Part shown: positions 14,464 to 40,619 of the stretch, in pieces
How the letters are laid out: every line of letters begins with the position of its first letter
Position numbering within the stretch: position 1 is the stretch's first letter
DNA from: a virus
Lineage: Duplodnaviria > Caudoviricetes
Length of the DNA stretch: 64,000 nucleotides
Reading direction: 5' to 3' (one strand)
IMG/VR virus record: IMGVR_UViG_3300014039_000022
Span: 1 to 64,000 of that record
Translations under genes and position numbers: made by a program
The notes under the pieces: generated by a model
Databases searched by the model: none
What the model was told of the DNA's origin: nothing
Seen by the model: the letters and a program-made list of their open reading frames with translations, nothing else

Positions 14464-14484
14464 AATTTGATAAATAAGAAAGAA

Positions 14485-14967: not shown

Positions 14968-14974
14968 AAGGTTT

Positions 14975-18047: not shown

Positions 18048-18050
18048 ATT

Positions 18051-18191
18051 ATGGCTAAACTCAACGACAGGCAGATAGAGCGCTACGAGAGCGAGAGTGA
18101 GTCATATGAGCGCTTCAATAAAAAGAAAAGAAATGATTATAAACCAAACAAGAAGGAGAAACACAAATGGAAGAGAGATTCAAATCAGTAA
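18051..18191 (+). CDS. Small charged protein (46 aa, not in ORF track)
   Basis: ATG 18051 to TAA 18191: MAKLNDRQIERYESESESYERFNKKKRNDYKPNKKEKHKWKRDSNQ; fills the gap. Confidence 0.45.
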   Translation: MAKLNDRQIERYESESESYERFNKKKRNDYKPNKKEKHKWKRDSNQ

Positions 18192-18769: not shown

Positions 18770-18887
18770 CCGCTATGAGGATTACGTGAGGAGGATTCTT
18801 TCCGACAGGAGCATGAGTATAAAAGACAAGGATAGACTGCTCCAAAGGATAGGAATCCTTCTTGGTGACTACACGGATTTGTTTTAA
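18762..18887 (+). CDS. Small hypothetical protein (41 aa, not in ORF track)
   Basis: MLNRYEDYVRRILSDRSMSIKDKDRLLQRIGILLGDYTDLF; overlaps the upstream stop. Confidence 0.4.
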   Translation: MLNRYEDYVRRILSDRSMSIKDKDRLLQRIGILLGDYTDLF

Positions 18888-18956
18888 TCCGGTTGCTTCC
18901 AAGGTGTCAATATTGTCTGTATTGACACCTTTTTCTTTAATAACCACTTAATACGG

Positions 18957-18987
18957 ATTGTCTTGAGACAGATTGTCCGTATATTTG
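18957..18987 (+). promoter_or_regulatory. Bacteroidetes-type promoter for the RNAP gene
   Basis: ATTG(18957-18960)-N19-TATATTTG(18980-18987), 28 nt upstream of ATG 19016. Confidence 0.6.
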
Positions 18988-19015
18988 TCAAACAAAAACT
19001 AAATGTAAATATTAT

Positions 19016-22000
19016 ATGGCTACCAATCAGTGTAACATATACCCAAGAGTGGGTAGAAGACTACGTTCGGTAAATACAGACTCTGGGCATCAAGTCCTCG
19101 GCGACGGTGTCACTAGCGAGGCTGTATACAGTATGATACGTCTGTATAATCTTAACGCCAAAAGAAACGGCAATCCTGGTCTTGTAATAAACGACAGTAA
19201 CTCATATACCGATGAGCAGATAGCGGAAATGGCTTCAAACATAGCTGAATTTATTAACAGCAAGCCGGATATGTCCGATATTGTAAAGACAACTAAAGAC
19301 GCTATGACAAAGGCTTTTGGCGCCAAGGAATTGCAAAATCAAGCGGCTATATCCATGAGGGTTAACGGGAAGGAACTTGCCGAGTTAAAATCCGATGTTG
19401 TCAATCTGTTTATGGGTGTAATAAAACAGGAGAGTAAACGCGTCGGCAAGTCAATAAATGATTATGTCAACTCGTTGACTACCGACAACCTTGCGGTTAT
19501 ATTCGATACCGTAATGAAGAATATGCTTCTTCTTACCAAGAAAAACAAGGGTGACGCCTATGGCAGAAATGATGTTGATTCTGCCAGTAAAATAGACAGC
19601 CTTGCCTCTCGTGTGTTTGGAATCAATATGAGCGGACACTATTATGACTCCATATTCTACGAGATAGCCTCTATGGCTATCCCTATGATAAACAAGATAT
19701 ATAACATAAGCATAAGCAGCGATTTGTCTATAAGGCAAAAAACCGAGTCAGTCAACAATACCGAGGCTAACCTTGAGGATATGGAACTTCCACAGGCTGA
19801 GGGTTGGCAGGTTGACCCAGACGAGGTTAACCCTATAAGCGGAATGGCGTCAAGCGTCAACAGACTGCTTATGTTGACACCTTCATATGAGGTTTCCGAG
19901 AAGACGGAATATATAGCCATAAAAGATATAGAGTTATCCAACGGAGAAAAGATAGGTAAGGATTCTGTAATAACCGAGGAAAAAGCATTGGATATACTCG
20001 ATAATGACTTGCTTAAGAACGACAATGACAAGAAGTTTCTGTCGCCGTTTACTACAATAGCGGAAAATGAGAAGAAAACGACTCTTACAGGACTCCCCAT
20101 GCTTTCAAACCCTCAGTTTGTTGGCAGGAGGGTATTCAATATAACAAATGGATGCTTCTCGGGCGAAGAAATGATTTCAAGACTCGAAAGGGCTGGCAAG
20201 AAATATAAAGTCATAGCTGATGTGCTGCGCAAAAACCCTATGACTCGCAACACTTTCGTATCTAACTTCAATAAATATCATCAGCAGGTTGTTGGAACGG
20301 TAAAGGAGTATCAAAAAGACGGGACGTATGTGTATTCTACGCCCGTTCTTAACAAGTCGAATTCAAAGGATTTATTCGAGACGTTCAAGAGTGGGTTGTT
20401 TTATGGAAGAAACACAAATACTTCCGTATTCAAGACTGTAGGCGATGGCGGCGATGGAACCATTGTCACGATATACTGCAACAGGGTTGATATGTATAAG
20501 AAACTCATAAACAGAGTTGAGGGTATCAGCGATTGTATCACATATTATATCGATAACGGAAGGTATCCTGTTCCCAACGATTTGTTTGCCAATAAGCAAA
20601 TGAATAATCCGGCTATAACAACAGACAGCGCCATGCTTGGATGCATAATCAACATGTTCAACTGGATAGGCGTAAAGATAGATGCCGATACAGCGTCAGC
20701 CATAATTGGTAACAAGGCTGACCTTGAGGCGATGATGAAGGCATTCAAGAATCTTTTCGGGGCGAACGGATTTAGAACCACAGAGAACTCATTCAAAAGT
20801 TTTGCTGAAAACGAAACGATACAGAATAATTATCCTATTCTTTTGCGTATGGCTGACCGCAACGGAGTTGAATCATCATACGAGAATATGTTCTCGTTTG
20901 CAGGAAAGAGGCAGACATCAAGGATATTGCCGTCAAGCGCTACTTCGTTATTTAAGAGGATTCATAATCTAACAGGCGACGATTTAAAGAATTTTCTTAA
21001 TGCGAAATATCTTGAAAGCCCAGTTTTTGCCGGTACCGTAAAGGGCAAAACAACTATATACAACAGGATATTGAGTGACCTTTACAGACTTTCTGATCAA
21101 TCTGAGTTTTATACATCATTGAGAGACAAAATAGATGTCATCCGCAATATGGGCGAAAATGATGTCGAAGCCGAGGTGACAGACAGGAGACAGCATGTGT
21201 TGATGGATATAACAACCTATCTTAATAATCTTGCGAATCCTAAATACGCCGGTACCCCTATACTCGGCACACCTTTTATGCTTAAGGGTGACACGATGCC
21301 AAGGAATAATTTCGCCTTTATTCCTTCGTTTATAACAGGCGATAATAATTCCGCGAGATATTTCAGGCTGCTCCATTATGAGGAAGAGGAGATACTTGAC
21401 GGGATATACAATCTGTTCTTGTCTGATGTTAATATGCAGAAATTGATAAGAAGTTACCAAAAAGCCGGGATAGTTGTGAGGGCTAACGACAAGGAGACTC
21501 TCACAAAAAAAGGCAACGAGAAAAAATTCGGTACGGTAGACTTCCTTAACAAACTGTCAGACAAGGATAAGAGCAGACTTGTAGACAAAGACGGAAATAT
21601 CATGGACGCCAATGTATTCAAGGATGAGATTCTCAAACCTTATCTTGAGAGAGAATTTGAGTCCTTTAAGACATTCCTTAAGGATAACGGCATACTCGAT
21701 GTAAACAATGATGGAGAGTATATCAATTTCAAACAATACATAGGAAAGGCAGAGAACCCACAGGAAAGGCTTGACAAGATACTGTATGACTTCTGGCTGA
21801 ATTATAAGTTCGGTATGATGAATGTGGTTAATCTAACGCAGGTTTCTCCTTTATTCTTTGCCGGAGTGAAAGATATGCAGAAAAGAAACAAAGGTGAGCT
21901 GACAAACGGTTATCAGGTTGTTAGAGATGCTGTAGACCTTGACGGCAAACCTATATTCGGAGACAATTTCACGCAAAGGGTTGGTTATTTCAATGATATA

Positions 22001-25000
22001 TCAATCGGCGTGAACGCCAGGACGAGAGAGGTTATGCGTAACGTCATGTATAACCGTTATCTGAAGACAATGAGCGACAGCGACGCAGCCAATGCGGCGG
22101 ATGCCTATATGAATCAATTTGACAGAAACACCTTGACAGATGGTGAGGCTTACAGGTCGCTCGACTCATACAGAAGGATACTCATGTCTATCGGAGAGCC
22201 ATTTTGGGATACAAACAAAGAACTTGCCTATCAGGAGATAAACAGTATAATCAATACCGCTTCAAATTTTGACTCTGACGGCAATCTCACAACCAAGTCG
22301 CTTACAAGAATAAACAACCTCATGCTTGTGATGCAGCCTATAAAGCCTATCAATGACGGCATTGAAATCGCTGGCAGCAAAAGGATTCCATTCCAGCTCA
22401 AATACGCTGAGGTGCCTATCGTGCCGGAAATGTATCCGAATGGAAGCAAAATGCGTGAGATGGGTATGTGGATGAAGCGTAACAATGTTGACTTGATGGC
22501 TTCATCAAAATGCGTCAAAAAGGGCTGTTTCCTTGAGTTTGATTTGCAATATATGATGGTTGACGGAAGTTATATAGACGCTTCGGGCGAGTTTCTTCCG
22601 GGAATGGATTCTGACGGCAAAGAAATAAAAGGAGACGACAAGCCTACAGCGGCTGAGCAAAGACGTTTCATATCAAACAGAGGAGAGGATAAAAGGGTAG
22701 TCATTGATGATTCCATATCTTTCGATAAGATAATGAGCGAGCAGACAAAACATTTCGATAATAAGACCGAAAAGGTTTACGGCGGATACATACATACGCT
22801 TCCTTTGGATTCGATGCTTATACAATCCAACGTGCCAGACCATACAGACGGAGAATCAATATTTGGTACACAGGGACGTAAAATAATTGATTCAGCCATA
22901 AAGAATGATGTTGTTTACAGAATAGGTTATAAAGACGTGACAGGTGGCAAGTTGAAGACTTATTTCAACCTGTTGAACTCTGCTAAATTCGCGAAATCTT
23001 TCGAGGGGTTCATATCGACATTAAACAATGGTGACAGGTTGACAAGAAACCTCGCTTTCTCATTGCTTAATAACGACAGGACAAACCCAGCCGTCATCAA
23101 CAGGATAATACTTGACTCAAACGGAAACCCTATCGTGCCTTTCTCTGAGATTGGCTGCGCTGACGACATCGAGAGCATGCTTATAAGCATGTTCAGAAAA
23201 GGCGTCATAAGGCAGACTGTACCCGGTGGAAGTATAGTACAGGCATCCTCACTTGGTGTTGGCGACAAATGGGTTGCATCACAGGAACTGAACGCGTTTA
23301 TAGAAGACGGCAAATTGTGTGGATATGAGTGTGAGATACCGTTCGACTTCTCCTACAAGGATAAAAATGGCAAGTTGGTAAAACTCGATTATGATAAATA
23401 TTGCTATCCGGACGGAACGTTTAAAGCGGCTCATCCTGAAACATTTTTTCTTACAGGTCAAACTCTTATAGAAGAGGATTTTCCGGGTATACTCGATTTG
23501 ATTGCATACAGAATCCCTACTGAGAAAGAATACTCTATGATGAGGCTACATGTGAAGAGGGTGACACCAAAAGGTTGCGCAAACTCTATCAAATTGCCAG
23601 CAGAATGCACTACTATAGCCGGTTTTGACTTTGATATAGACAAGCTCTATCTGATGAGACATAACTATCACGAGGAAGAAAACAAGGTTGACCCTTACGA
23701 TGTTTGGACTTACTTTTATACATCAAGCGAGTTCGGAAGAAAAGCAGCTGCCATTCTTAAGGAGAAATCAGAATCTATGTCTGATTCCGAGAAGGACGCG
23801 TTGAGGGAGTCGCTCGGCAAGCAGCCGGATGACAGACTATATCTTCACGACTATTGGAACGAGACAAATTTAGCATCTCTTGACAAATCCAAGTCACAGA
23901 TATACGACGAGACGTTAAAGGAAATGGGTTTGGATAAGGCTGAAATTATTGGTCCAAAAGATGATTTTAGTTATAATTTTGACAACGTTCTCGATATGTC
24001 AACAGACGATATAAACAACGCGCTTGTTGATATATACATAGGTGTGTTAACCAACGAGTCAACAGCCTCTGACAGAATAGCGATAGGCGGTTTCAAGAAC
24101 GCAAGTGAGTCTGCCAGGCTGGCAAGAGTGTCAACCCATGCCAAAGAAATGCGTGATAAAGGCTTGATAACAACCGAGCAATATAACAGAATCAAAGGAG
24201 ACGGTGGTTATGAATATCTTAAGAACATTCTCAAGGAAAATAAAAACCTTGACTATAATGAGGATTATGATTATTCCGACCCAGAGACTTCCGTTATATT
24301 CAAGGAAATGAATCAAGCCGCCGGTGATTTGATTGGCATATTCGCCAACGACAACGTAAACGCGTTTATTTCGTCAAGACTTAAAACCTTGAAATTCAAA
24401 AGTGATAACAGGATTCTGTTTGGCAGTCTTGCTGACTCGGGCAAAATCAAGGAACTTAACGGCAGCACGTCAGATATAAACACATCTGAATTGGGTTGCA
24501 ACCTCCTTAATACGAGTGTTAACAATCTTGATACGCTTAAGGCCTTGTCGGAAATGCTCGCAGCCTCTGTTGATGCTGTTAAAGACCCGGTTTTGAATTA
24601 TCTCAACCTCAATACCATAACAGCCGATGCGGCAGGCATGCTTCTCAGACTTGGTTATACAACGGATGATATAGCCTTATTGTTTAACCAACAAATTATT
24701 AAGAAAACCTGCGAGTATATGCGTTACAACGGAATCAGCAGCGTCTCTACAGCGTTAAAAGCCGTTCTGCGTGACTATTATGGAGTGTCAAACGTCGGGA
24801 GAATGCTAAATTCCGAGTATTCACCTATGGCTTTGACTCAAGATAATCTTATGAAAGGCATAACAAACCCGGATGACGCATCGTCGAAAAACATGCAGAC
24901 AGAGGTTGCCATACTTTTCAACAGGATAATATCAAACTCAAGGGAATTGAGCAATTATATACAATCAACAAGAAACACATCTGCAAATGTTGTCAAATCA

Positions 25001-26446
25001 AGGTTTGCGGATGAAATCTCTTCGATACAGAAAGGAGGAAGGGCTTTTGAGAAACTTTTAATCGAGACTTATGACGGTCTTGAGAACCCAATAACAGAGG
25101 ATTGGAATGATTCTGAAAATCCATGGAGTAAAGATGGAGATAAAAAAGGCTTGCATGACAGCCTTGTTGGATTCCTTGACAAATACTCAGAACATCCTTT
25201 TGAGTATGAGAACATGGTTTACAACATAACAAGATACACCATGGATTATATGATGAGGAAATTCACCCCTTATATGTCAGCGTTTTATACCGAGAGGCTT
25301 GACTATGCCGCTGATATGATTTCCCCTTGGGGACTAAGCGGTGATGTCGCACAGATGATACTGAGGGATATACCAAAGTTAAGGCTGATTAACGCGATGG
25401 GCAGCAGATTCAATCCTTTGCTGGAGTCCTCCGACGGTGTCAGCAACGCCAAGAGGTATATAGCCAGCTTTATCAAGGATTTTATGGGCATGTTTTCCGG
25501 ATTAGAAATAAACCAACGTTGGCTAAACGGTGACTCGCAAGAAAACTTTGCCAATTTCATCACATCCAATGATTTTATGCAATCGCTCGATTTCGTAAAG
25601 TTTGACAAGAATCAGCCGCTTGGCAGGGATATGATGGAATTGAGGTACTCTTATAGTATGTCTCCCGAGGAAAAACTCGCACTCGCAAACAGCTTTAATG
25701 AATTATATGAAAGGTATCCTGAATTTGCGAAAGATATCTTTATGCACTTCTATTATACGAAAGGTTTGAATCCAGCCACAAACAGGCTCCTTGGTATTGT
25801 GAATCAGGATATGCTGTATATAAATGCAGTGGGAAACCACAGTTACGTTGATTTGTTTGACGGAAACAACATCATAAACGAAAGCGACGAGGACACAAAA
25901 TCCGAAGATGTCTACAGGTTTATGATGATGCATTGCGGTGATTCAAACATAGTCGGCAAGATGCCTTTCCACATAAAAGATGTTGCTGTTCTGAGCGAGA
26001 AAAACAATGATATCATATCTGTATCTGGAGAACAACTGGACGCGTGCTGCTTTGTTAAAGGCAAGGAAGAGTTTAGAATGAGACCGCTTATAAATATTGA
26101 CGGTAACATCTACGCCTTGGCTGATGCCTCCTCAATCAATACCGGAGATACAAAAAGATTTGGTGACGGTCTTGTTGTAAACACCATACCAAGTGATTCA
26201 AACGATGCTGTTTATGTACTTGTGAAGAATGAGATATCCGAGGATATCAAAGGGCTTATAAACGACAATAACTCGTATATGTTTGACAGGTTTGACATCA
26301 AAGAAGAACGTATTATAAGAAATGATACAATAACAGCCGATGACAAAATTGTCGATGATACAGTAAATGCCGCTAATAGGGCAGCCGCACAAACAAGAAA
26401 CGACAGCATCGTCGATGACAACAACCAGATAGTTTGTGGAAGTTAA
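19016..26446 (+). CDS. Virion-packaged single-chain DNA-dependent RNA polymerase (crAss type, phi14:2 gp66-like)
   Basis: 2476 aa; catalytic GFDFDIDK (23627-23641), YRIPTE, TDGEAY, KR.K, GTQ.RK, VDAVKDP. Confidence 0.9.
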   Translation: MATNQCNIYPRVGRRLRSVNTDSGHQVLGDGVTSEAVYSMIRLYNLNAKRNGNPGLVINDSNSYTDEQIAEMASNIAEFINSKPDMSDIVKTTKDAMTKAFGAKELQNQAAISMRVNGKELAELKSDVVNLFMGVIKQESKRVGKSINDYVNSLTTDNLAVIFDTVMKNMLLLTKKNKGDAYGRNDVDSASKIDSLASRVFGINMSGHYYDSIFYEIASMAIPMINKIYNISISSDLSIRQKTESVNNTEANLEDMELPQAEGWQVDPDEVNPISGMASSVNRLLMLTPSYEVSEKTEYIAIKDIELSNGEKIGKDSVITEEKALDILDNDLLKNDNDKKFLSPFTTIAENEKKTTLTGLPMLSNPQFVGRRVFNITNGCFSGEEMISRLERAGKKYKVIADVLRKNPMTRNTFVSNFNKYHQQVVGTVKEYQKDGTYVYSTPVLNKSNSKDLFETFKSGLFYGRNTNTSVFKTVGDGGDGTIVTIYCNRVDMYKKLINRVEGISDCITYYIDNGRYPVPNDLFANKQMNNPAITTDSAMLGCIINMFNWIGVKIDADTASAIIGNKADLEAMMKAFKNLFGANGFRTTENSFKSFAENETIQNNYPILLRMADRNGVESSYENMFSFAGKRQTSRILPSSATSLFKRIHNLTGDDLKNFLNAKYLESPVFAGTVKGKTTIYNRILSDLYRLSDQSEFYTSLRDKIDVIRNMGENDVEAEVTDRRQHVLMDITTYLNNLANPKYAGTPILGTPFMLKGDTMPRNNFAFIPSFITGDNNSARYFRLLHYEEEEILDGIYNLFLSDVNMQKLIRSYQKAGIVVRANDKETLTKKGNEKKFGTVDFLNKLSDKDKSRLVDKDGNIMDANVFKDEILKPYLEREFESFKTFLKDNGILDVNNDGEYINFKQYIGKAENPQERLDKILYDFWLNYKFGMMNVVNLTQVSPLFFAGVKDMQKRNKGELTNGYQVVRDAVDLDGKPIFGDNFTQRVGYFNDISIGVNARTREVMRNVMYNRYLKTMSDSDAANAADAYMNQFDRNTLTDGEAYRSLDSYRRILMSIGEPFWDTNKELAYQEINSIINTASNFDSDGNLTTKSLTRINNLMLVMQPIKPINDGIEIAGSKRIPFQLKYAEVPIVPEMYPNGSKMREMGMWMKRNNVDLMASSKCVKKGCFLEFDLQYMMVDGSYIDASGEFLPGMDSDGKEIKGDDKPTAAEQRRFISNRGEDKRVVIDDSISFDKIMSEQTKHFDNKTEKVYGGYIHTLPLDSMLIQSNVPDHTDGESIFGTQGRKIIDSAIKNDVVYRIGYKDVTGGKLKTYFNLLNSAKFAKSFEGFISTLNNGDRLTRNLAFSLLNNDRTNPAVINRIILDSNGNPIVPFSEIGCADDIESMLISMFRKGVIRQTVPGGSIVQASSLGVGDKWVASQELNAFIEDGKLCGYECEIPFDFSYKDKNGKLVKLDYDKYCYPDGTFKAAHPETFFLTGQTLIEEDFPGILDLIAYRIPTEKEYSMMRLHVKRVTPKGCANSIKLPAECTTIAGFDFDIDKLYLMRHNYHEEENKVDPYDVWTYFYTSSEFGRKAAAILKEKSESMSDSEKDALRESLGKQPDDRLYLHDYWNETNLASLDKSKSQIYDETLKEMGLDKAEIIGPKDDFSYNFDNVLDMSTDDINNALVDIYIGVLTNESTASDRIAIGGFKNASESARLARVSTHAKEMRDKGLITTEQYNRIKGDGGYEYLKNILKENKNLDYNEDYDYSDPETSVIFKEMNQAAGDLIGIFANDNVNAFISSRLKTLKFKSDNRILFGSLADSGKIKELNGSTSDINTSELGCNLLNTSVNNLDTLKALSEMLAASVDAVKDPVLNYLNLNTITADAAGMLLRLGYTTDDIALLFNQQIIKKTCEYMRYNGISSVSTALKAVLRDYYGVSNVGRMLNSEYSPMALTQDNLMKGITNPDDASSKNMQTEVAILFNRIISNSRELSNYIQSTRNTSANVVKSRFADEISSIQKGGRAFEKLLIETYDGLENPITEDWNDSENPWSKDGDKKGLHDSLVGFLDKYSEHPFEYENMVYNITRYTMDYMMRKFTPYMSAFYTERLDYAADMISPWGLSGDVAQMILRDIPKLRLINAMGSRFNPLLESSDGVSNAKRYIASFIKDFMGMFSGLEINQRWLNGDSQENFANFITSNDFMQSLDFVKFDKNQPLGRDMMELRYSYSMSPEEKLALANSFNELYERYPEFAKDIFMHFYYTKGLNPATNRLLGIVNQDMLYINAVGNHSYVDLFDGNNIINESDEDTKSEDVYRFMMMHCGDSNIVGKMPFHIKDVAVLSEKNNDIISVSGEQLDACCFVKGKEEFRMRPLINIDGNIYALADASSINTGDTKRFGDGLVVNTIPSDSNDAVYVLVKNEISEDIKGLINDNNSYMFDRFDIKEERIIRNDTITADDKIVDDTVNAANRAAAQTRNDSIVDDNNQIVCGS

Positions 26447-26457
26447 TAATTGATATT

Positions 26458-29400
26458 ATGAGTGATTATTGCGTAAGAAAACCATGTGTTAAAAACAAAA
26501 ACGGAGAACTTGTAGACAGCAAGCTTTGGGATGACCTGTTCAGAATAACAGGAAAAGACAGGGCGAGAACGATTGAGTTATACAAGATAGCCAACAGCGA
26601 CACGTTTATGAAATCAGCCGCTGATGAGGCGGAATACGATATGAATGGGCAGATTACTGCCCATTCATTCCTAAAGTTGGCCGGATTGGATGCCGAGTTG
26701 TCAAACGAGTTCAAACAATTGTCGAAAACGTATGACAGCCAGATTGATGAATCCGATTTGGACAAGACAGTCAGAAGATTCAATTCAGAGCAGTCAAAGT
26801 CAGACTATATTCCAAGCGTGTCTGATGATTCTGACGGGAAACTTAACGTCAGGATAGTCAGAAGGAGCGAGAATGCCATAGGGGAGTTAGCTAAGCGTCT
26901 TGAGGATAATAAACTTACAGGCTTGATATCGAATAGGCTGAAAGAGCTTGGCGTAGCATATGATTTCGTTGGAAGTCTTGACTATAACGGAAGGTTCTCA
27001 ACTCAGAACGCATCGAGAATGTCAGATGGTTTGTATCATCTGATACAGTTGTCTACAAACAGCAAAGATATAAATGACTCTCTTGTCGAGGAGGCGGCAC
27101 ATCTTGCCGTGATGGCCACAAGGGATAAATTTGCTGTCAAGAGACTTATAGACGCGATAGCCGACTTGAGAAAGAGAGAGAGGCTTGACTCCATGTTTAC
27201 CAATGAGGAGATAGAGTTAGCCAAGGCTAATCCTAAAAATATTGATTTGGAACTTGCGGGTATAGTTGTAAAGAAAGCGATGCAACGCAAAACCATAAGC
27301 GGTTGGAATAATCTTGTCGGTTCAGTAAAATCATTTATATACGGAATATTCTCAAAGTTAGGTCTTACCAAGGTTATGCGTGACAAAGCGTTGGCTAAAA
27401 GATACGGAGAGGCTATAGCGAGTGGATTCCTGTTTGACGAGGATAACTTCTCGCTCGACAACGCCTTGGAGAATCCAGTCAAATTGTATTCGCTCCGCAC
27501 GGATAATCAGAACACCAAGTTTGTTGAGCAGACAATGAAGAGACTGTCTATACTTAATAACAAACTTATGCAGGCCAGCTACAAGATGGCCTCAACGAAG
27601 GAGTATATGAGTCTAAGACCTGGCGAGTTGTTGGGAGACCGCAACGAGTTGGAGATGAATGAGGCTTTTGCTTCAACGATAGCAAGCAATGCGATAGACA
27701 CTCTTTGGAATGATTTTCAGACAAACTATGGCGTGTTAAGCAGAATATCAGCCAAGGATTTCCGTATGGAGGATATCTCAAGAACTCAAATCGACAATCT
27801 TATGCGTTGCATCGAAGTTTTTGATTCGTTGAAGGATATCTGCGAGGCATATATGTCTTTGGCGTCAAACACAAGAATCAAATATGAGCAGGCAAAGGTT
27901 ATAAGCGATGATTTAGGCGACAGGTTGAAGCCGTCAGCCGCTATGGAGAGCACACTAAAGATAATAAAAGATATAAACGAAGCCCTCTCTGACGGCAAGA
28001 TTGCTATGAGCCTAATGTCTTACAGCCGCATATTCACAGCATCTTTGCTTGAGTTTACGTATGGAAGGGATAATACTACTATTCCTGCAAAAATGGTATT
28101 CAAAGGATTGAGTACAGAAGTTGAGAAAGAGCATACTGTTGACATGTATGACCTTGCCTCAGCCTATATGAGGGACTTCTCTTATGACGGTGGAATATTA
28201 AGTGGATTCAGTTCTTTTATAAGGTCTAAAAGATTTTCAAAAGATTCCTTAACACAGGCTATGGACAAGATAGCCCGTAAAAGCCGCACCATAGCGATGA
28301 AATACAGGGATGACAGACTATCCCAACTAAGAGATATAAGACACAAACTTAAGGAGTCTGGATTTGACGAGGATACATTCTATGAGAAAGTTGTCGCTCC
28401 GCCTAAGGTTGAGATAAAGGATGATTATTATGTAATCAACGGGAAGCCGATAGCGCAAGTAAGCAATATTGACGGTCTCCCTGTAGTTCATGATGTTGAT
28501 GGAGTTTGGCGTCTTGATGATATAGACACCCAGATACCGGTTGATTATGTAGAAAAAACGCAGAGCGGCTATTATATATCCGAATACAATCATAGGCAAC
28601 TATGGATAGACAGAAGGGTTGCTGACAGGTTGGTAAAGAGCCAATTTATAAAGGAGGCGAAATCAACTATGGCTGTAGACGAGAATGGTGACGAGGTTTC
28701 GGAATACATATTGTTTAAGAGGATGCCGGCAAGCAAGAGAAGGTCCATCTATTATAAATACAGGGATAATACGGATATATGGAAGAGATTTATAAAAGAG
28801 TCATACGAAGACCCGAAGATAGGTAAGCCTTCTGAAAAGTATAGAAATAAAGAATTTCAGCGTAATATAGAGAGATATGGAGAGAAATGGCTTGACTTAT
28901 ATAATGAGATTATGGAGTATAAGAGAGCTGTTGATTCCGAATGCCTGTCCGAGAGGGAGGAGTTTGGCTCATCAGGCGACATAAGCGGGAAGAGGCATTT
29001 TGTTGAATATAAAAGGCCTCAATACAAAAAGAGTTTTGTAGGAAAATATCTTTCTCATAGGCTCGACAGTGTTGATTTGTATGACAGTCAGTTCACCACT
29101 CTTCTATGCGAGGATGTGACATCAGACGCTTTCGGAGATATCACGACAGACACCGAACTCAATGAGTTTAATGACGAACTGTCGCTTTATGCCGATGGTT
29201 TGAGGAGAATACCAATAAACGGAATAAATGATGTGAGTGACATTCGCGAGTTGAGTGATGACTTGGTTGGCAGTCTGTTCGCGTATACCGACATGGCTTA
29301 CAGGTTTTTCGGAGCGCAACAGGTATATTCATCAATGAGCGTGCTTGACTATACCGCTGACAACAGAGGAGGGGGAGACTTCACCAATACGCTCAAACTT

Positions 29401-31581
29401 AAAAATATAGGAGAGCGCGAGCGGAACAATATAATGAATACCTTTATTTACGGCAACGATATACGTGAAAGAGGTTGGCGAAAGGTATTTAGCGTGCTTA
29501 ATAAAATAGCCGGAGTTGTATGTATCAGACTTTTGTGCATAAACTTGTTTTCTGCGTTAAAGAATAAATACGGAGGATTGAGTGTATTCCTGAAAGATTC
29601 GTCATTCTTTGGTGACACATATGATTTCAAGACAAAACATTTGATTTCCGCTTGGTTTAACGACACCTTCAATCCAAGACATTGGGCTGGAAGCGTATGG
29701 AGTAAAATAACAAACAAAGAGGTTAGTTGGGACAGATACCAAAAACTAACAGACAGGTTTGACAGATTCAGAAACCCAAGGGTTAGGAGTGAGTTCTCAA
29801 AAAGATGGAATCCACTCAAGCACCTGACTAATGCGTTGATGGCAAATTATGACCTGACTGACACTTCGCTCATAGCGATAATATATAGAACCTACCTAAA
29901 AAACAGGTTTGTATACGATTCCGACGGAAAGAAAATCAATCTTGAGCAGACTTATAGTTTTGACAAAGATAATAATCCTATACTTAAAGGAGGCTTAATA
30001 AAGGAGGAGCGCAATATAGGATATGCAAGATTGCTTCGTGACGCCAAAGAGGCTCTTGAGGAGATGATAAGAAACAACAATGACAATTCGTCACAGGTTG
30101 TGCTTCACGCAAATGATGATGACAGGATAGCCGCCCTTGCTGATTTTATCAATAAAAACGCAAGGATACTCAACGGCGCTGATGTCAATATAGAGTTGGT
30201 TAATAAGGATGGTTCCTATAAACCAGAGTCGAAACTGCTTAAAATCATTGAAAATGAGTTAAACAATATAAGTTATACTGTTGACGACGAGGCTAACTTC
30301 ATAAACGAGGTTGATGAATACATAGCGATTTCACAGGGCTATTACGGCGCAATCAACGCATCCGAATTTCAAACAAACGAATATAGCGCGGCTTTCGCGA
30401 AGATGAAAGGTTGGCTTATGGCTTTCGTGCAGAGGGATTTCCTTAATAACGTCAATATGTCAACAGGCAAGATGATGTCAGGTATTATGAATACACAGGC
30501 TTTGGCTTTGGCTACGGCGTTTATGCCTAAAGTTGACCCGTCAACAAAAGACTTGACTTTTATCAAGGATTACAGATTCAGGCTTGCCACACTCACTGCA
30601 ATGCTTATTCCTTTCGCGTTAAAAAGCAAAAAACTTAGGAATTATCTTGCCAGAAGTGGTTGGGACCCGTCGCAACTTGCCGCGTTGTCTTTTGGAGCCA
30701 TATCTAATTTAATCAATATCTTCCTTGTCTTGCTTGCTTATTTATTCAGAAGGGGGAACCGCAAGTCTATGGGGGAGAAGATGTCACAACCGAAAGAATC
30801 AAGAACAGGCAAGCATAATAAATATAGGAAGCCTGGTATATTTGGAGATTTCGAGATGTTTGATGACGAGAGTTACCAAGAAGACTATAATCGCTGGGAA
30901 AAGAAAGGGTATCCAAAAAGAGGTTCGCAGAAATCTATGTATAATATTTCCGATATGGAAAGTTTGGATTATCCTCAGTATTATTTGCAGGATCTGCCTG
31001 ACGATGCAGAGGCTGGAGATATAGTCTACGTTATAGATAAGGGTATACATTACAAATACTATGACAGTAATAAAACCAAAGGATGGAAGCCGTATATTCT
31101 TGGCTATTACGAGTATGGTTCTCAGGAGTGGAACGAACATGATGAGGCGTTACAGATGAAAAACATAGTATATGACAAGAATAACCCTATGTACTACTTC
31201 TGCGGATTTGCCTACAAGATGCTTAGGGGAATATCGAGTGAGGCGCTAACCCTTAACGATGCCGTAGCAATGGGTGGCGAGATTGTCGATTTGTCAAAGT
31301 CTGTGATATTCTCAGGCGGATTCAAGGTTTTGTTTGACGGTCTTGAGAATATACTTTCCGCTGAAGAGTCAACAAAAAAGAGTTGGGGTGAGCGGGAAAT
31401 CAACTTCTACCTAAAGAAGTTCCAACTTGAACTCGACGGACCCGGCAAGACTATAGCAAGGGTGAACGGGCATAAAATAACAGTTCTTGACTTCTATTCG
31501 TCACAAGAGGTTGCCGACAGGTATAAAAAGACAAATAGTAATATCGGAATACCAACTCAGGAGCAGTTGTGGTTCAAATGA
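26458..31581 (+). CDS. Giant virion/ejected protein with zincin-like motif and hydrophobic C-terminal segments
   Basis: About 1707 aa; EEAAH at 27088-27102; hydrophobic stretches near the C-terminus; directly follows RNAP. Confidence 0.7.
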   Translation: MSDYCVRKPCVKNKNGELVDSKLWDDLFRITGKDRARTIELYKIANSDTFMKSAADEAEYDMNGQITAHSFLKLAGLDAELSNEFKQLSKTYDSQIDESDLDKTVRRFNSEQSKSDYIPSVSDDSDGKLNVRIVRRSENAIGELAKRLEDNKLTGLISNRLKELGVAYDFVGSLDYNGRFSTQNASRMSDGLYHLIQLSTNSKDINDSLVEEAAHLAVMATRDKFAVKRLIDAIADLRKRERLDSMFTNEEIELAKANPKNIDLELAGIVVKKAMQRKTISGWNNLVGSVKSFIYGIFSKLGLTKVMRDKALAKRYGEAIASGFLFDEDNFSLDNALENPVKLYSLRTDNQNTKFVEQTMKRLSILNNKLMQASYKMASTKEYMSLRPGELLGDRNELEMNEAFASTIASNAIDTLWNDFQTNYGVLSRISAKDFRMEDISRTQIDNLMRCIEVFDSLKDICEAYMSLASNTRIKYEQAKVISDDLGDRLKPSAAMESTLKIIKDINEALSDGKIAMSLMSYSRIFTASLLEFTYGRDNTTIPAKMVFKGLSTEVEKEHTVDMYDLASAYMRDFSYDGGILSGFSSFIRSKRFSKDSLTQAMDKIARKSRTIAMKYRDDRLSQLRDIRHKLKESGFDEDTFYEKVVAPPKVEIKDDYYVINGKPIAQVSNIDGLPVVHDVDGVWRLDDIDTQIPVDYVEKTQSGYYISEYNHRQLWIDRRVADRLVKSQFIKEAKSTMAVDENGDEVSEYILFKRMPASKRRSIYYKYRDNTDIWKRFIKESYEDPKIGKPSEKYRNKEFQRNIERYGEKWLDLYNEIMEYKRAVDSECLSEREEFGSSGDISGKRHFVEYKRPQYKKSFVGKYLSHRLDSVDLYDSQFTTLLCEDVTSDAFGDITTDTELNEFNDELSLYADGLRRIPINGINDVSDIRELSDDLVGSLFAYTDMAYRFFGAQQVYSSMSVLDYTADNRGGGDFTNTLKLKNIGERERNNIMNTFIYGNDIRERGWRKVFSVLNKIAGVVCIRLLCINLFSALKNKYGGLSVFLKDSSFFGDTYDFKTKHLISAWFNDTFNPRHWAGSVWSKITNKEVSWDRYQKLTDRFDRFRNPRVRSEFSKRWNPLKHLTNALMANYDLTDTSLIAIIYRTYLKNRFVYDSDGKKINLEQTYSFDKDNNPILKGGLIKEERNIGYARLLRDAKEALEEMIRNNNDNSSQVVLHANDDDRIAALADFINKNARILNGADVNIELVNKDGSYKPESKLLKIIENELNNISYTVDDEANFINEVDEYIAISQGYYGAINASEFQTNEYSAAFAKMKGWLMAFVQRDFLNNVNMSTGKMMSGIMNTQALALATAFMPKVDPSTKDLTFIKDYRFRLATLTAMLIPFALKSKKLRNYLARSGWDPSQLAALSFGAISNLINIFLVLLAYLFRRGNRKSMGEKMSQPKESRTGKHNKYRKPGIFGDFEMFDDESYQEDYNRWEKKGYPKRGSQKSMYNISDMESLDYPQYYLQDLPDDAEAGDIVYVIDKGIHYKYYDSNKTKGWKPYILGYYEYGSQEWNEHDEALQMKNIVYDKNNPMYYFCGFAYKMLRGISSEALTLNDAVAMGGEIVDLSKSVIFSGGFKVLFDGLENILSAEESTKKSWGEREINFYLKKFQLELDGPGKTIARVNGHKITVLDFYSSQEVADRYKKTNSNIGIPTQEQLWFK

Positions 31582-31631
31582 TAAAAACCAAGCCTTAAGG
31601 CTGATGTTTATAATAAAGACAAAACAAACGG

Positions 31632-31669
31632 AAATAGGGATAATCGTAATGATTATCCCTATTTTTTTT
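31632..31669. terminator. Terminator at the convergence of + and - modules
   Basis: AAATAGGGATAATC-5nt-GATTATCCCTATTT followed by a T run. Confidence 0.85.
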
Positions 31670-31689
31670 ATTCATATCATTGTTATCAA

Positions 31690-34600
31690 CTAAAACATAT
31701 CTGTTATGTCATCAGTTCCGGCTATTATGGTATCTGTTGAGTCGTTTTGTTTTGTCGGTTGAGTTGTGTTGCTTCCGCATTGGGTGTCATCAAGCGCGTC
31801 ATCCTGCTTGATATCAACAACAGGCACGTTCTCATCCTGCTTCACGTTTGATTTCGTCTCCCCTATCTGTGTTATGGCTCCATCAGACTTACCGTCAGTC
31901 CATTCATAAGAATTGATTTTAGACAGACTCATTGGTTCTATGTTTATGAAATTATTATACAACATACTGTTTTTTGTTATCAAAACCTCATTATTCTCGT
32001 TGTTATCATATCTAAACACGGATACACCTCTGCCTATAATTGAGAAGTCAACGTTATCTGTAGACACCGCTTTCGCCCCTTCTGGATTATAAGCCAGCAT
32101 GATTGGTATTATCTCCATAGAAACCACGCTACCTTTCCTTCCTGTAGCCGCCTCTATGCTTGCCTTGTATAGATTAAGTTGCTGCTGCCACTTATCTACA
32201 GATAGCCCGCTGAATCCCTCTATTGTGAATGTCTTGCCATTTCTGTTTTTATACGTAGAGTTTGCACCTGAAGATATTCTGACAGACTTGTAATCATATA
32301 TATGATAGTTTCCGTCTTTGTCAACAGTAATCATATCCGGCACGCACTTTAAACCCTCTATACTGCCACCGTTTTCGTTATATATCGTCTCTTTGAATAG
32401 ATACTCACCTGTGAGTATAGTCTCTTCTCTTGACTCTATTGTTTTTACCACACATTCATTAAATTCATTTATGAGCCACTGTATGTCAGTCTTGCTGATA
32501 CCTGGGAAACTACCCCAACCCTTGTTTTTACCCTTGTCTATCTTGGTGTTCTCCAGAACCCATTTGCGTATCGAATCAGCAATCTCCGACATTGACGCGT
32601 TCTTGTTTTTGGCCCTCTCGGTTATAAACAGCCTGAATAACTTATCTATTGAGGTACCGATAGATTTTGCCACATCCGCGTAAGTTTCATTTGATATATT
32701 TGAATACAAATCATCATCAGCCTTATCCTTAATGAAAGTAGTGGCTCCTATACCGTCACCTTCCGGATTATTCTCTTTGGTTATTCTATACTTTTCTATC
32801 GCCGACACAGCCGCCTCAACCTTTGTCTTCCCGTCTGACGCGTCGCTGGTTTCAGTCTGAATCCTTCCAGATATTTTCTTGCTATTCTTAGGAGTCATAT
32901 CTGTGGCTATAAGCATATCGTTACCTATAACCTTTTCTATCTCATTATTATGGTCGGCCTCTGTAAGATTGTTTCTGTAATTATTATATGTACTCAAATA
33001 ATCATAATCAACTTGAGGTTTGGCTATATTATACCCTCCGACTTTTTTGAATGATTTCATATCCTCGTCGAGTATAGCCTTGGCGAAAAGCCTCTGTATA
33101 TCCATATTTACAGAATCAAGCGTTCCTCTTGATATAGGATTGTCATTTGTTATATCGCTGATGCTTGGATTGACATCAATATCGTTTGAATCCATTACCG
33201 CTCCGAAAAAATCCCTCATGCCTATATCAACAAAGCCTGAGTCGCTGTCATCTCTGTTAGTATATGAAAGTCTCAAACTGATTCCGTCTATACCTTTCGA
33301 CTTATCGTATATAGATATGGATACATTAAACGTAATATATGGATTCTTATCGTTTATCCGCTGCTTGAGGTTTATATGTCTGCCTATATTTTTGTTTATT
33401 TTGTCGATTACAGGCTTTATAAACCTGTTGAAATTCTCGACAGAACCATTATTATTTAATATATCTTCAATCTGGTCTATCAGTTTTTTAATTTCAACGG
33501 CATCCCTTGGTATAAGCGCGTTACGTATCTCTGCAAGTGCTGATTTAATAGGTCTTGATGCGGTTCTTTCCTTGGCTGAAAGAATATTTATTTTACTTAA
33601 CGCCTCAATCACACCTATCTTAGTCTTGTTGCCGTTATTATCCCTTGACGCTATTGTATAATCATCAAGACTCTTTACTAAAAACTTTGTTAAGTTTCCG
33701 TCTTTATCAACAATACCAAGCAACGGTTTTGTACCTTTCTCTTTCAAAACCTCAATTCTATCCTTATCTTCTATACCATAAGTCTCAACGACATCTTTTT
33801 CTTCTGTATCCTCATAATATACAGTCAGTTGGTTGGTTCTTTCGTTGAAGTTATATCTTACTGTTACAAATTTTACATTCTCACCAGACTTAAGTTCATC
33901 TATAATCTGTTTTAAGTCATTTGTGCCTAATGTTTTGGTCAGCACATCAACAACTGTCTCGTTTTGGTTTGATATCTCTGGCTTATTACCTTTATTGTTA
34001 TTATTATTCTCTACCGTCAATCCAGTGGAGACATACGGAATCGTATTGCCATCTTTATCTTTTGTTGTGACTATTCCATTTTTATCAATTATAGAATTAA
34101 CCCTAAGCGCGTCAAGTTCATTCCTTTCCTGTTGCGCGCTAATCCTTGACTCTTGCAGCAACCCGACTTTAATATATGATTTACCGTAAGCCTTGAATGA
34201 GTTTGGCGTGTCATCTGCCACCTCGACGCATACCACTACAGGCCTGTCGTTTGAATCTATCGCATTTGATTGGGCTATTGAATCATCTATGATAAATATA
34301 GCATTGCCGCCTTCTTTCTTTTCCTCAATTTGAGCGACAGCCTCTTCATAATTAGTGGCTATACCGTTATCATCATACCATTTCTTTTCATTCGCTGTAA
34401 GATTCTCTTTCAGCCCGAACTCTATGGATATCCCGTTAAACTTATTAATCCTTACATCCGCTTTTACGAATCTTCCATCGTCGTAAAATTCATTCAAATC
34501 CTTACGCATGGATTCCTGAAGCGAAGCATCTGTCTTATATATATCAGATATTGTCTTATACGTTTCATATAGTATATTCGAGTTGTTATATATCGCTATG

Positions 34601-37600
34601 TTTTCATTTGTAACCTTTCCTTTGGATAATCTTTCTTTAAGTAGACTTTCCATTTTTAATACAGCCTCATTTATGCTCTTAATATTGAATTTAGAGCCGA
34701 ATATATCCTCTGGAAATATAGTATCACCTATTTTTGTCTTGATATAAAGATTTGCTATAGCAACAAAATCATTAAACGTAAAACCGATTGCGTTCTTTCT
34801 CTTTCCGTTTATGTAATCAACAAACTCTTCTAATCCAAACAGTCTGTCGTATTCTTCTCTGTCAGAATTTAATACCTCTCTATCCATTAGCGTAGACAAC
34901 CTTCCTGCATGCTCAAGTTCTAACACACTTTTTTCCGCGCTATCAGATTTGTTTTCCTGCTCAAGTTTTGACCCAAACTCCTCTATGGCTGCCATATTAG
35001 AGGTATAGTTGTTTATCTCGTTAACTATATTATTGACTGTTTCCGTATTTATATTTGCGTCAATAGGTATTGAATACCTATCGGCTATATCCTGTCTAAA
35101 ATTAGAATCAGCCATTATATCCAATATATGCCCGACAGACGTATCCTTATCCCTCAAAGCCCTTGAATAGGCGGTGTCAAACAGATTCCTATACATCCTG
35201 TCAAGAGACTTGTATGCGTTCACATTCTTAATGACACCTATATCTCTTTGTCTATCCTTATTAAGTTTTATCCAATCCTTATAAAATCCGCTTCTTCCCA
35301 AAACCTCGCTTAATACCTGCTCCTCATACACGCTCATCCTCTCGTCGAGGAGTTTGTCAGCCTCCTCTTCAAAAGTCTCGTAATTGGTTGCCCTCAAAGC
35401 TCTTTCTGCTTTGTTTGTAACCATCCTCTTGGCGGCTTCGAGTCTTATGCTATTGTCATAAAGCATCATATTGTTCTGGTCTTTAACGATATCTTTAAAG
35501 TCCTCATCGAATGATTCCATTCTTTGACTAAGTATAGACGCATCCTTAATTTCCGTAAGGATATCATTGGTTATTCCGCTCGCTTTAACAAAATTGTCTA
35601 TTTCTTTTTGTTGAGCGCTTGAATATCTTTCCTTATTAGTAGGATTTAAAAGTTCAGCCATAGATTGAGCGTCAAGACCAGATATTCTATCAGATGTAAT
35701 AACCATATCCTTATCTATTCTTGACAACTCATTAAGTGCAGATTTTGCATCATTTATATTCTTATCTATACGACGCATTTCCGTCTTATATCTAAACAAA
35801 GGCATACTCTTTTTATTCTCTCTTAGCCTTCTCTTTTGTTCCGCAAAAGCACTTAGTATTAGCTTAGCCGAGTCTTTATCTCCATATCTAGCAAGAGTCC
35901 TCTCGGCTTCTGATGAAGTCTCAGCTGCTGTATAACCAAGATTAGACTTATTATAAGCTTCTCTAACATCTTTTGCTATCTCACTTATGCGTTTATTCCA
36001 ATCATCTCGCATAATCATATTGAAAGCCCAGGCATCTTTGGTGTTCTCGCTTATAGCCTCACCAAACTCCTTATTAAGGAACCTTCTGGCATCAGACAGT
36101 TTATTGTATAACTCGTAAGTCTCAGAGGCTCTCTTATGCACCGTATCAAGTATATCCTTCTTTTCCTCCTTGGTTAACTCGATATCGTTTGATATGCCTC
36201 TTTCGTTCTTTGCACGTGCAAATATACCCATCTGCTCCGCGTCAGACTCGCTTATTGTAGAAAGGAACTCAACCTGTTCGCGGAAAGCCTTAGCGCCAAC
36301 TCTTGCTCCAATCCTATCCATCATTATAATACCGGCTATGCGCTGTCCCATAATAGCATCCCTGAAGTCCGCGTCGCTGTCAGGATTGGTCGAAGCCTCG
36401 GCGGCTTTGTTAACCCACGCATACATTTGCTCGATGTCATTCATAGTCGCAAGCTCCTTATGGTTTGCGAGCCATCTGTTAACCTCATCAGCCTCTTCTG
36501 CTGAACGTACAGCCCTTGCCTTATCCTCATGTACAGCCTCAAGATATGGATTCCTCCAGTAGTCACCAGGATTAGCCTTAATATCAGAAAGCCAGTCAAG
36601 GAATATATTATCCTTGCTTGTAACGCCACTTGCCCTTCTGTTGATAAAGTTAGCGGTACCTCTCCCTATGGTTGGATTGCCCAAACCAGATGAGACAGCG
36701 GCCATCATGCCAGAGAATATAGCCTCTTTTGAGAACCAATTCTCTTTCATTACCTTTTGCGCCGCGTCTATATTAGCCCAGTATGTGTCACTGAGGGTCT
36801 CTATCGCGTCTGGATCCGCCATATTAAGCATATACTGCGCGGCATAGTTGTCAGCAAGAGTCTCAAAAGTAGCAGAACCCGCTGTTTGCCCGGTCTCCTG
36901 CAAAACCTCTGACGCAACCTCGGATGTACCCTTTACTCCAGAGACTATCTTTCTTCCAATATTATAAGGAACAGCCTTGGCTACAAGCCTACCAGCCTCA
37001 TTCCTTGTCAGTCTTATGTTAGGAGAATCAGCCAACTGTCCCAAAACAGCCCTTTTGGCGTTATTTTTAATCTGTTTATAGGCTCCACCTACTATGTTTG
37101 AGAACAACATGTCAGAAGCCCCAATAAGCACCGTCTCAAAAGAAAGATTGCGGGCGCCCGCGCGCTTTTGCGCCTCATTAATCATATTGACCACCTCGGG
37201 ATTATTGGCAAGTCTTGATGCTACATCTCTTCTATATTGCTCGTATAAGGCTCTTCTCTCGGCACCTAATCTTGCGCTTAACGCTTCCTGTGATTCAGCG
37301 GGAGCCTCATGGTTAAACGCAACATTTTTATCCCTATATTTTTCGTAGTATTCCTCAAACTCCTCTGGTCCTATGTTGTTCTTTATATATTCGTCGAGAA
37401 AACTATATTGATTCATATTCTCACCGCCATAAATAAGATTGTTTATATAATCATCAAGATTATACTTTGTGCGGTTCATAATATCAAGTGTATCTATAGA
37501 GCCTTCACCAGCACCTAAAGCCATAGCAGGTACAGTCATAGCAACAGTTTTGCCTCCGGCGTTTACAGCCCACGCGGCGGCTCTCGCGAATTTGCTTGCG

Positions 37601-38979: not shown

Positions 38980-38980
38980 A

Positions 38981-40618
38981 TTAATCGTCTATTGGTGGAA
39001 GATTATTATCTTGTTGTTCTGTATTATTATCATTATTTGTATCAATCGGATTATACTTCCTACCAGAACCAGTATATTTCAGACTCAACTCCAAATATGC
39101 GCGTTTGTTTGGATTTCCGTGTTTTGCATACATAACCGCACTCAGCTCCATTCCTGTTCTGTATAATTCCTCAAGCGCCGAATCTATATCCGTATTATTT
39201 GTTTTTTTCTTAACAAACTCATCAATCTTGCCGGAGAGGCCGCCAGCGCGAACCTTTAAATCCTCATATTTAGACTTGAAGTTTGCAAATCCAGAGTTAC
39301 CTGATTGATTAGTTGCTGTTACGACTATATTAAAATCTGATATCGGACTATATTTCTCCCCTTCACCGGAATTATCTTTATAGTCTTCTTTATATTCCAT
39401 ATCTGATACGGTGTTTCCATCCGGTCTATATCTTGATATTATATTTCCTCTCATATAAGGCTTTAACTCATTTTCGTCTATGCCCATATACGCCATATAA
39501 TATCCTTTCGCGTTAAAAGATTTAGGAACCACATATTTTCCATCCTTGTTTTTTACCTTTGTGTTTCCGTCGATATCAACTATGACTTCAATGTTTTGAC
39601 CGTAAGCGTTAGTGGTTCCGGTTGATGATATTCCGGTGATATCGTTATGTATCGACGCACTTAATGTATTATCGTTATTAAGGTTATCGAGTTGTTCCTG
39701 TGTAATCATCTTTGTCTTTCCTTTTGAATCCTTATAAGTCCATACGGTCTCTCCGTTTATGTTTTGAGACTTATTAAATTCCACGGTGGCACCGTCACCT
39801 GTAAATGTATACCCTATCTTATTGGGTGTTTTTTTAGTGACTGAGCCACCGGCTCTTCCGACAGGAGCGCCAGTACCTTTATATTTTCCATACATTGACT
39901 TATAAGCGTCAGCCTCAGCCTTGATTAACTTGGCTCTCTCCAAAGCCTGTTTGTTAATATTGTCGGTATAAGTCTTGTCGGCAGTCATAATACCTAGAGA
40001 CAAAGCGTTATCAACCATTGCTTTTCTTCTGTCATCAAGGTTGTCATATCCGTATCTCTGTCTCTCCGAGGCTATTATGTTATTCATATCCTCTTCGGTG
40101 ATATTGTCGCCCTTTGATGACATAGCGCTATAAACCTTTGACGCCACGTTATTTGCCGCCTCGTTCATATCATAAGGGGTATAAGTCGAGCCTTCCACAA
40201 CCTTGCTTGCCGGAGTGACCGAGTAATCCACATCAAAGAAGGCGTTAGGATTCTTAGACAGATACTCCCTCTGCTGCTTGACCAACTCTGCCCTCCTTTT
40301 AATTCTGTCAACCATATCGGCGAATCCGGTCTGGTATTCAGCCCTGTATTTACTGAGGTTGCTCCTAGTCTGCCTTGACAATCCTGTGGTTGCTATCTCG
40401 TCAACCATAGAGTTTATCCTGTTTTTGAAGTCAACGTATTTATTGTATTCCTCCTTGTCAACCTCGCTGTCTTTCAAATCCTCAAGGCTTCTGGCGTCCT
40501 CAAGCAGTTTGAGGTAAGCCTCCTCCTGTCTGTCACGTTCAGTTCCGTATACAGCATAAGGCTGCAACATCTCCTGAAACGTCATCGGCTCGTATATGGG
40601 TTTTATACTGTATGCCAT
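38981..40618 (-). CDS. Virion cargo/ejection protein
   Basis: 545 aa; N-terminal YEPMTFQEMLQP and FFDVDYS typical of the crassvirus gene after cargo C1. Confidence 0.65.
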   Translation of the reverse strand: MAYSIKPIYEPMTFQEMLQPYAVYGTERDRQEEAYLKLLEDARSLEDLKDSEVDKEEYNKYVDFKNRINSMVDEIATTGLSRQTRSNLSKYRAEYQTGFADMVDRIKRRAELVKQQREYLSKNPNAFFDVDYSVTPASKVVEGSTYTPYDMNEAANNVASKVYSAMSSKGDNITEEDMNNIIASERQRYGYDNLDDRRKAMVDNALSLGIMTADKTYTDNINKQALERAKLIKAEADAYKSMYGKYKGTGAPVGRAGGSVTKKTPNKIGYTFTGDGATVEFNKSQNINGETVWTYKDSKGKTKMITQEQLDNLNNDNTLSASIHNDITGISSTGTTNAYGQNIEVIVDIDGNTKVKNKDGKYVVPKSFNAKGYYMAYMGIDENELKPYMRGNIISRYRPDGNTVSDMEYKEDYKDNSGEGEKYSPISDFNIVVTATNQSGNSGFANFKSKYEDLKVRAGGLSGKIDEFVKKKTNNTDIDSALEELYRTGMELSAVMYAKHGNPNKRAYLELSLKYTGSGRKYNPIDTNNDNNTEQQDNNLPPIDD

Positions 40619-40619
40619 A

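Follow-up and report, generated by a model that had tools for sequence, protein, structure and literature searches.

Conserved terminal cysteines suggest an end-to-end link between three giant virion proteins of crassviruses

The stretch of DNA analyzed here, hereafter the window, comprises 64,000 nt of the virus genome IMGVR_UViG_3300014039_000022 (Duplodnaviria; Caudoviricetes). It encodes three giant proteins of 2429, 2476 and 1707 amino acid residues (aa) which, by sequence homology, are the trio of gp47-like protein, virion RNA polymerase and gp49-like cargo protein of the order Crassvirales, i.e. homologs of crAss001 gp47, gp50 and gp49. Comparative sequence evidence gives good support to a chain in the order gp47-like protein, RNA polymerase, gp49-like protein, with a link between the ends that face each other. 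A cysteine rule that holds throughout the order and is dropped where the genes are fused suggests that the three proteins are joined by their ends to form a single thread, and we consider it rather probable that disulfide bonds join this chain. The proposed links and the terminal motifs that would connect them are:

31690..38979, minus strand: gp47-like giant cargo protein, 2429 aa (open reading frame (ORF), blastp and synteny); proposed first link
19016..26446, plus strand: virion RNA polymerase of the gp50/gp66 family, 2476 aa (GFDFDIDK motif and 6VR4 profile match); proposed middle link
26458..31581, plus strand: gp49/gp65-like polymerase-associated cargo protein, 1707 aa (tblastn); proposed last link
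31771..31791, minus strand: C-terminal tail motif DDTQCGS of the gp47-like protein with Cys2401 (ORF translation and homologs)
19031..19051, plus strand: N-terminal motif CNIYPRV of the polymerase with Cys6 (ORF translation and conservation of C6)
26414..26443, plus strand: C-terminal motif DDNNQIVCGS of the polymerase with Cys2474 (ORF translation and conservation)
26470..26490, plus strand: N-terminal motif CVRKPCV of the gp49-like protein with Cys5 (conservation in homologs)

The original prediction had placed four cysteines at the ends of these proteins, and the translations confirmed all of them. The polymerase starts with MATNQCNIYPRV, in which Cys6 is encoded at 19031-19033, and ends in DDNNQIVCGS directly before the stop codon, with Cys2474 (26435-26437) third from the end. 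The 1707-aa protein starts with MSDYCVRKPCV at ATG 26458, its Cys5 being encoded at 26470-26472; this start was chosen over TTG 26434 because the homologs begin likewise (MSDYC). In the 2429-aa protein, Cys2401 of DDTQCGS (31777-31779, minus strand) is located 28 residues before the end. The other cysteines of this protein are residues 1584, 2176 and 2212, none of them near the N-terminus. In total, the three giants (in the order just given) contain 19, 9 and 4 cysteines and, unlike many relatives, thus have internal ones. With cysteines placed uniformly, the joint probability of the four placements is about 4e-6, a post hoc figure. Of the 47 remaining ORFs in the window, only two have a cysteine within the first 8 residues and only two within the last 6; these ORFs encode helicase-, primase- and JAB-like proteins and a 151-aa protein without family match.

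Both N-termini, that of the polymerase and that of the gp49-like protein, fit the pattern C-x3-P-x-V, as had been predicted, and both C-terminal motifs, of the polymerase and the gp47-like protein, share the pattern hydrophobic-D-acidic..Q..C-G. The idea of matching terminal motifs thus stands for short cysteine-centered motifs but not for a homologous docking domain. Such a domain, shared by the N-termini of the polymerase and the gp49-like protein, was rejected since hhalign aligned only 7 residues with a probability of 1.3%, and the C-x3-P-x-V likeness is, judged from these alignments, one of a short motif around the cysteine. An AlphaFold model of the gp49-like N-terminus (mean predicted local distance difference test score 58, best over a moderately confident domain of approximately residues 11-150) places Cys5 on an unstructured overhang in front of a predicted beta-hairpin (residues 10-20).

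The alignment of homologs, proposed with the original prediction as its check, bore out the conservation of the terminal cysteines across Crassvirales. Among 66 full-length polymerase homologs with identities down to 22%, a cysteine is present within the first 8 residues in 64 (3.3% expected) and within the last 4 residues in 65 (1.7% expected); all 66 have one within the last 14. The two apparent exceptions at the N-terminus (P0050 and P0059) were discarded as truncated gene calls, their relatives starting with MSCVN or MGCVN. In an alignment of nine polymerase homologs only three cysteines were invariant, including C6 and C2474, and D2467 was invariant as well. For the gp49-like protein, C5 is the sole invariant cysteine across 19 homologs with identities down to 28%, with P9 and V11 conserved to 90% or more. 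An N-terminal cysteine occurs in 19 of 20 gp49-like homologs, the one miss being an N-terminally shorter call, and a C-terminal cysteine in 0 of 20. All five close homologs of the 2429-aa protein (60–100% identity) retain its Q-C-G, and one of them has only two cysteines in 2433 aa. In neighboring clades the cysteine of the gp47-like protein is located 1-5 residues from the end (0-5 counting other clades). The 28-residue tail that follows it in the window ends in a conserved G-T-D-D, and in the neighboring clade the cysteine comes after that block. By this comparison, the gp47-like cysteine is shifted within a flexible tail, as expected of a tether.

The rule is clearest in relatives with few cysteines. 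In phi14:2, g067 has one cysteine (the last residue), g066 has two (C3 and C2179 of 2180 residues) and g065 has one (C3). These are four cysteines in 5,398 residues, and the null probability of their placement is 1.7e-10. In crAss001, gp47 has a single cysteine, third from the end, and gp49 a single one, Cys5, while the three cysteines of gp50 include Cys5 and one located 9 residues from the end. Across more than 5,000 residues, the proteins of phi14:2, crAss001 and DAC15 have no cysteines, or almost none, besides the terminal ones. The same rule applies to DAC15, cr126_1, cr116_1, the IAS virus and 12 IMG/VR loci, so that the observation is much more general than seen in one window: it holds across the order Crassvirales, far beyond this clade.

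A conserved cysteine may also serve a contact without a disulfide. The termini could dock through a shared metal ion, e.g. zinc held together with nearby acidic or other ligands, or through a non-covalent clasp of a peptide in a groove. Such docking agrees with the invariant aspartate 7 residues before the C-terminal cysteine of the polymerase, with the acidic residues that precede the cysteine in both C-terminal motifs, and with assembly in a reducing cytoplasm. On the other hand, most relatives have one cysteine per terminus, too few for a classical Cys4 site, and the shift of the cysteine by approximately 25 residues in the gp47-like tail is easier to reconcile with a tether than with a precise metal site. 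We regard this explanation as unlikely, though the least unlikely of the alternatives considered.

Gene order and natural fusions indicate which ends face each other. The phi14:2 genes all run in one direction as g067>g066>g065, i.e. gp47-like protein, polymerase, gp49-like protein, and fusion proteins keep this order of modules from N- to C-terminus. In the Intestiviridae crAss002 (gp33), cr8_1 (gp93) and cr3_1 (gp24), blastp identified the polymerase and the gp49-like protein within one protein of 4245–4422 aa. These fusions retain the N-terminal cysteine, and the separate gp47-like protein keeps a last or penultimate one. No cysteine was found within hundreds of residues of the junction, which was placed roughly from blastp and the distance to DFDID, and none is C-terminal. 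No significant match on these fusions was obtained with a hidden Markov model of the gp49-like N-domain. Cys2380 of cr8_1 had been considered as a junction cysteine and was rejected, as it sits in the polymerase body. In seven Suoliviridae (cr1_1 gp076, cr118_1 gp14 and others), the gp47-like protein and the polymerase are fused (4272–4946 aa). Here the N-terminal cysteine is absent, the C-terminal one is kept 1-3 residues from the end, and the separate gp49-like protein keeps a cysteine at position 3-6, which is its sole cysteine in three of the seven. Compared with the window, in which three separate genes are present and the gp47-like one is on the opposite strand, the fusions of Intestiviridae and Suoliviridae have a peptide bond in place of the proposed disulfide at one junction.

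The absence of the facing pair where polymerase and gp49-like protein are fused, together with the retention of the other pair, fits a pairing of the gp47-like C-terminus with the polymerase N-terminus and of the polymerase C-terminus with the gp49-like N-terminus. It also argues against a single four-cysteine metal site and against an anchoring of each end to another virion protein. A Cys4 metal site common to all three proteins was rejected, because two terminal cysteines remain after fusion. Docking of each pair of termini without a disulfide explains the joint loss at fusions equally well as a disulfide does. The chain order of the original prediction, from the 2429-aa protein via the RNA polymerase to the 1707-aa protein with the facing ends linked, is strongly supported by conservation, by the depletion of cysteines in relatives, by the phi14:2 gene order and by the fusions.

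The fusions bear on two further alternatives. The cysteines could pair differently or with other partners: the polymerase N-terminus with its own C-terminus and the gp47-like C-terminus with the gp49-like N-terminus, each protein with itself as a homodimer, or the termini with portal, capsid or tail as anchors. In favor of such pairings, structural proteins of crAss001 use many inter-subunit disulfides. However, polymerase-gp49 fusions lose exactly the pair facing each other in the chain and keep the other two cysteines, gp47-polymerase fusions keep the other facing pair, and a fusion would not be expected to remove an anchor to a third protein. The chain also agrees with the order of the genes and with that of the fused modules, and we judge such a pairing improbable. 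Even less probable, in our view, is a role in processing, with the cysteines as nucleophile or recognition residue for the cleavage of a leader or tail, or as acylation sites, left over from polyprotein maturation. The phi14:2 preprint proposes a cleavage of fused polyproteins and a zincin-like protease domain in gp65-like proteins (10.1101/2020.03.07.982082), and the N-terminal cysteine is always preceded by a leader of 2-5 residues. In contrast, polymerase-gp49 fusions lack the cysteine near the junction that a cleavage nucleophile needs, no signal peptide or lipobox precedes the N-terminal cysteine, and family searches found no intein or protease family.

A precedent for a disulfide link between ejection proteins exists in cyanophage A4 (Anabaena phage A-4L). 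In the cryo-electron microscopy (cryo-EM) structure of its pre-ejectosome, Cys1715 of gp27 forms a disulfide with Cys5 of gp26, and the C-terminal helix of gp27 lies in a cleft of gp26 (PNAS 2025, PMC12002296). The A-4L genome encodes a gp27 of 1717 aa whose single cysteine, this Cys1715, is third from the end; gp26, the next gene downstream, starts with MSKHC. The grammar is identical to that of the crassvirus trio: a C-terminal cysteine upstream and a cysteine at about position 5 downstream. The same placements are found in the window, where Cys2474 of the polymerase is third from the end and Cys6 of the polymerase and Cys5 of the gp49-like protein are located at the downstream starts. As the sole solved analog, A4 counts against docking without a disulfide. 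The A4 system (Saffermanviridae) has one link, two proteins and no RNA polymerase, whereas two links with the polymerase in the center are proposed for the crassvirus trio. Moreover, the A4 paper treats the bond as a structural detail and not as a rule (PMC12002296). PDB sequence searches with the three proteins and with profiles of the gp49 family and the polymerase revealed no homology to the A4 proteins gp26 and gp27, and blastp gave no hit to A4 gp27. A Foldseek search with the AlphaFold model of the gp49-like N-terminus returned nothing at E ≤ 0.001.

In the order of the chain that we favor, each junction is marked by two cysteines: the upstream protein has one on its flexible C-terminal tail, and the downstream protein has one within its first 3-6 residues. 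Once the particle is assembled, these facing cysteines would most likely be joined by a disulfide between the two proteins. The result would be one thread of approximately 6,600 residues running from N to C, the split-gene equivalent of the fused polyproteins in other crassviruses. Speculatively, the link might provide for packaging at equal stoichiometry and for ordered threading through the tail, and it might be opened by reduction in the host cytoplasm. Disulfides between subunits do occur at the portal vertex and in the tail of crAss001 virions (PMC10172136), which counts in favor of the disulfide chain.

Several points weigh against this disulfide chain. The hosts are anaerobes whose cytoplasm is reducing, and reducing conditions also prevail in the gut lumen. 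In the phage of the window, the proteins have further cysteines (19, 9 and 4 in all), so that the argument from terminal cysteines as the only cysteines fails, and the gp47-like cysteine lies 28 residues away from the C-terminal end. Three Suoliviridae fusions have a conserved cysteine at approximately 2020-2040 that may or may not belong to the junction; it was considered as a junction remnant, but its distance to DFDID is shorter than that of the N-terminus in any known polymerase, and it is absent in cr1_1 and cr50_1. No disulfide has been observed between these proteins. The cargo of crAss001 was unresolved by cryo-EM and the paper reports no link (PMC10172136). The disulfides known for crAss001 come from purified virions. 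Finally, the A4 precedent is an analogy, a likeness in the way of working and not one by descent.

A broader reading is offered tentatively, and we hold it for less probable than the chain itself. Crassvirales and the Saffermanviridae phage A4, two unrelated podophage lineages, may both tie their injected proteins together from N to C by disulfides, a redox-cleavable polyprotein written in a terminal-cysteine grammar. The proteins would then be packed at fixed stoichiometry, pass the tail as one polymer and be released in the reducing cytoplasm of the host, and splitting the genes with cysteine pairs or fusing them without such pairs would be interchangeable solutions.

Crassviruses, more abundant in the human gut than any other phages, have to store and inject approximately 0.75 MDa of protein, among it the polymerase with which infection begins. 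This cargo is invisible in the cryo-EM map of crAss001 (PMC10172136). A covalent head-to-tail chain, if true, would give the cargo order, stoichiometry and polarity, would explain why the same modules are sometimes fused, and would provide a sequence rule by which linked ejection proteins can be recognized in uncultured phages.

The trio proteins were detected by mass spectrometry in virions of crAss001 (PMC10172136) and phi14:2 (10.1101/2020.03.07.982082), and only for these two phages are the packaging of the polymerase in the virion and its activity on entry known (PMC10172136; 10.1101/2020.03.07.982082). Neither the crAss001 paper (PMC10172136) nor the phi14:2 preprint (10.1101/2020.03.07.982082) mentions cysteines or links among the trio, and our literature search found no paper describing a terminal-cysteine rule for Crassvirales. 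The homologous proteins gp47/gp50/gp49 of crAss001 and gp67/gp66/gp65 of phi14:2 have the same arrangement and the same four terminal cysteines as those of the window. They differ from the window phage, which shares approximately 24–27% identity with them, has more internal cysteines and carries the 28-residue extension past the gp47-like cysteine. A known counterpart is the N4-like virion RNA polymerase gp50, a single polypeptide of approximately 3,500 residues that is ejected together with gp51 and gp52 (PMC13434306). Like the crassvirus polymerase, N4 gp50 is a giant enzyme that is stored in the capsid and ejected into the host, and the three crassvirus proteins possibly correspond to the N-terminal domain, the catalytic core and the C-terminal domain of the N4 enzyme (PMC13434306). 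In contrast to the trio, N4 gp50 is a single chain, and its polymerase fold is unrelated to that of the crassvirus enzyme (PMC13434306). The N4 paper, dated 2026, mentions no cysteine or disulfide and calls the structures of crassvirus ejection proteins unresolved (PMC13434306).

The assignment of the three giants is based on motifs, profiles and gene order. The polymerase carries its catalytic motif GFDFDIDK at residues 1536-1543, of which D1538, F1539, D1540 and D1542 are invariant in the homolog alignment. The family profile of the polymerase matched PDB 6VR4 chain A (phi14:2 gp66) over the catalytic region (E 5.9e-21). The family profile was needed, as the polymerase of the window gave no match to 6VR4 as a single sequence. 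In tblastn, annotated crassvirus RNA polymerases matched it with 24–27% identity (crAss001 gp50, E 6e-42). The gp49-like gene starts 12 bases past the polymerase stop codon. Its product matched genes annotated as RNA-polymerase subunit in cr126_1, DAC15 and cr85_1 (tblastn, E 9e-32 to 6e-11), with the matches starting from residue 1-5, and it has no match in Pfam and PHROG. The 2429-aa protein matched DAC15_61 (E 6e-51), crAss001 gp47 (E 8e-6) and IAS gp058 (E 2e-4) in blastp. As in crAss001, its gene is convergent with the polymerase gene and adjoins the gene of cargo protein 2, and the layout corresponds gene for gene: polymerase (gp50), gp49, the convergent gp47, then cargo 2 and cargo 1. 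The latter two form the context of the trio and stand outside the chain:

38981..40618, minus strand: cargo protein 2, gp46-like, 545 aa (Pfam crAss_CARGO2, E 9e-20)
40620..42929, minus strand: cargo protein 1, gp45-like, 769 aa (Pfam crAss_CARG1, E 2e-43)

Cargo protein 2 has no cysteine, and cargo protein 1 has a single internal one at residue 188 of the 772-aa reading from TTG. An extension of the chain to these two proteins was hence rejected for this window. The whole cargo block (31690-42929, minus strand) is poor in cysteine, with 0.16% in the gp47-like protein, 0% in cargo 2 and 0.13% in cargo 1, the value for the window being 1.0%.

Where the gp49-like and gp47-like genes converge, a hairpin of 17 pairs with T-runs on both strands lies between their stop codons (31630-31666) and looks like a bidirectional intrinsic terminator. 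The gp47-like protein contains a region resembling PD-(D/E)XK nucleases at approximately residues 2104-2308 (32056-32670, minus strand) with the motifs PDMITVD, IYDYK and QQQLNLY, located just upstream of the cysteine-bearing tail. Its match to Pfam PDDEXK_1 (E 0.01) is below the cut-off; four of nine relatives match, the best with E 2e-4. The gp49-like family has an invariant block L-x-E-E-x-A-H-x-A at residues 209-217 (E211-E212-x-A214-H215), which is not the canonical HExxH. From its sequence, this E-E-x-A-H block may be a remnant of the zincin-like site reported for phi14:2 gp65; no family model matches it.

Some observations concern the genes of relatives. In cr116_1 (6506-17371), as also in P0070-P0074, the polymerase gene is split at DFD|xD by an insert encoding a 215-aa protein and is annotated as two pieces. 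The annotated start of crAss002 (NC_055828) gp33 (12821-25558) is probably 32 codons too far upstream; the internal Met33 yields MSCTPSNP, which matches the M-x-C start of other crassvirus polymerases. Under translation table 11, the giant genes of the Suoliviridae cr114_1, cr53_1, cr109_1 and cr56_1 contain 24–70 in-frame stop codons, which fits the stop-codon reassignment known for some crassviruses. Lastly, cr8_1 (NC_055877) encodes a thioredoxin at 25783-26052, a few genes away from its cargo block, which could matter for the redox handling of the proposed links.

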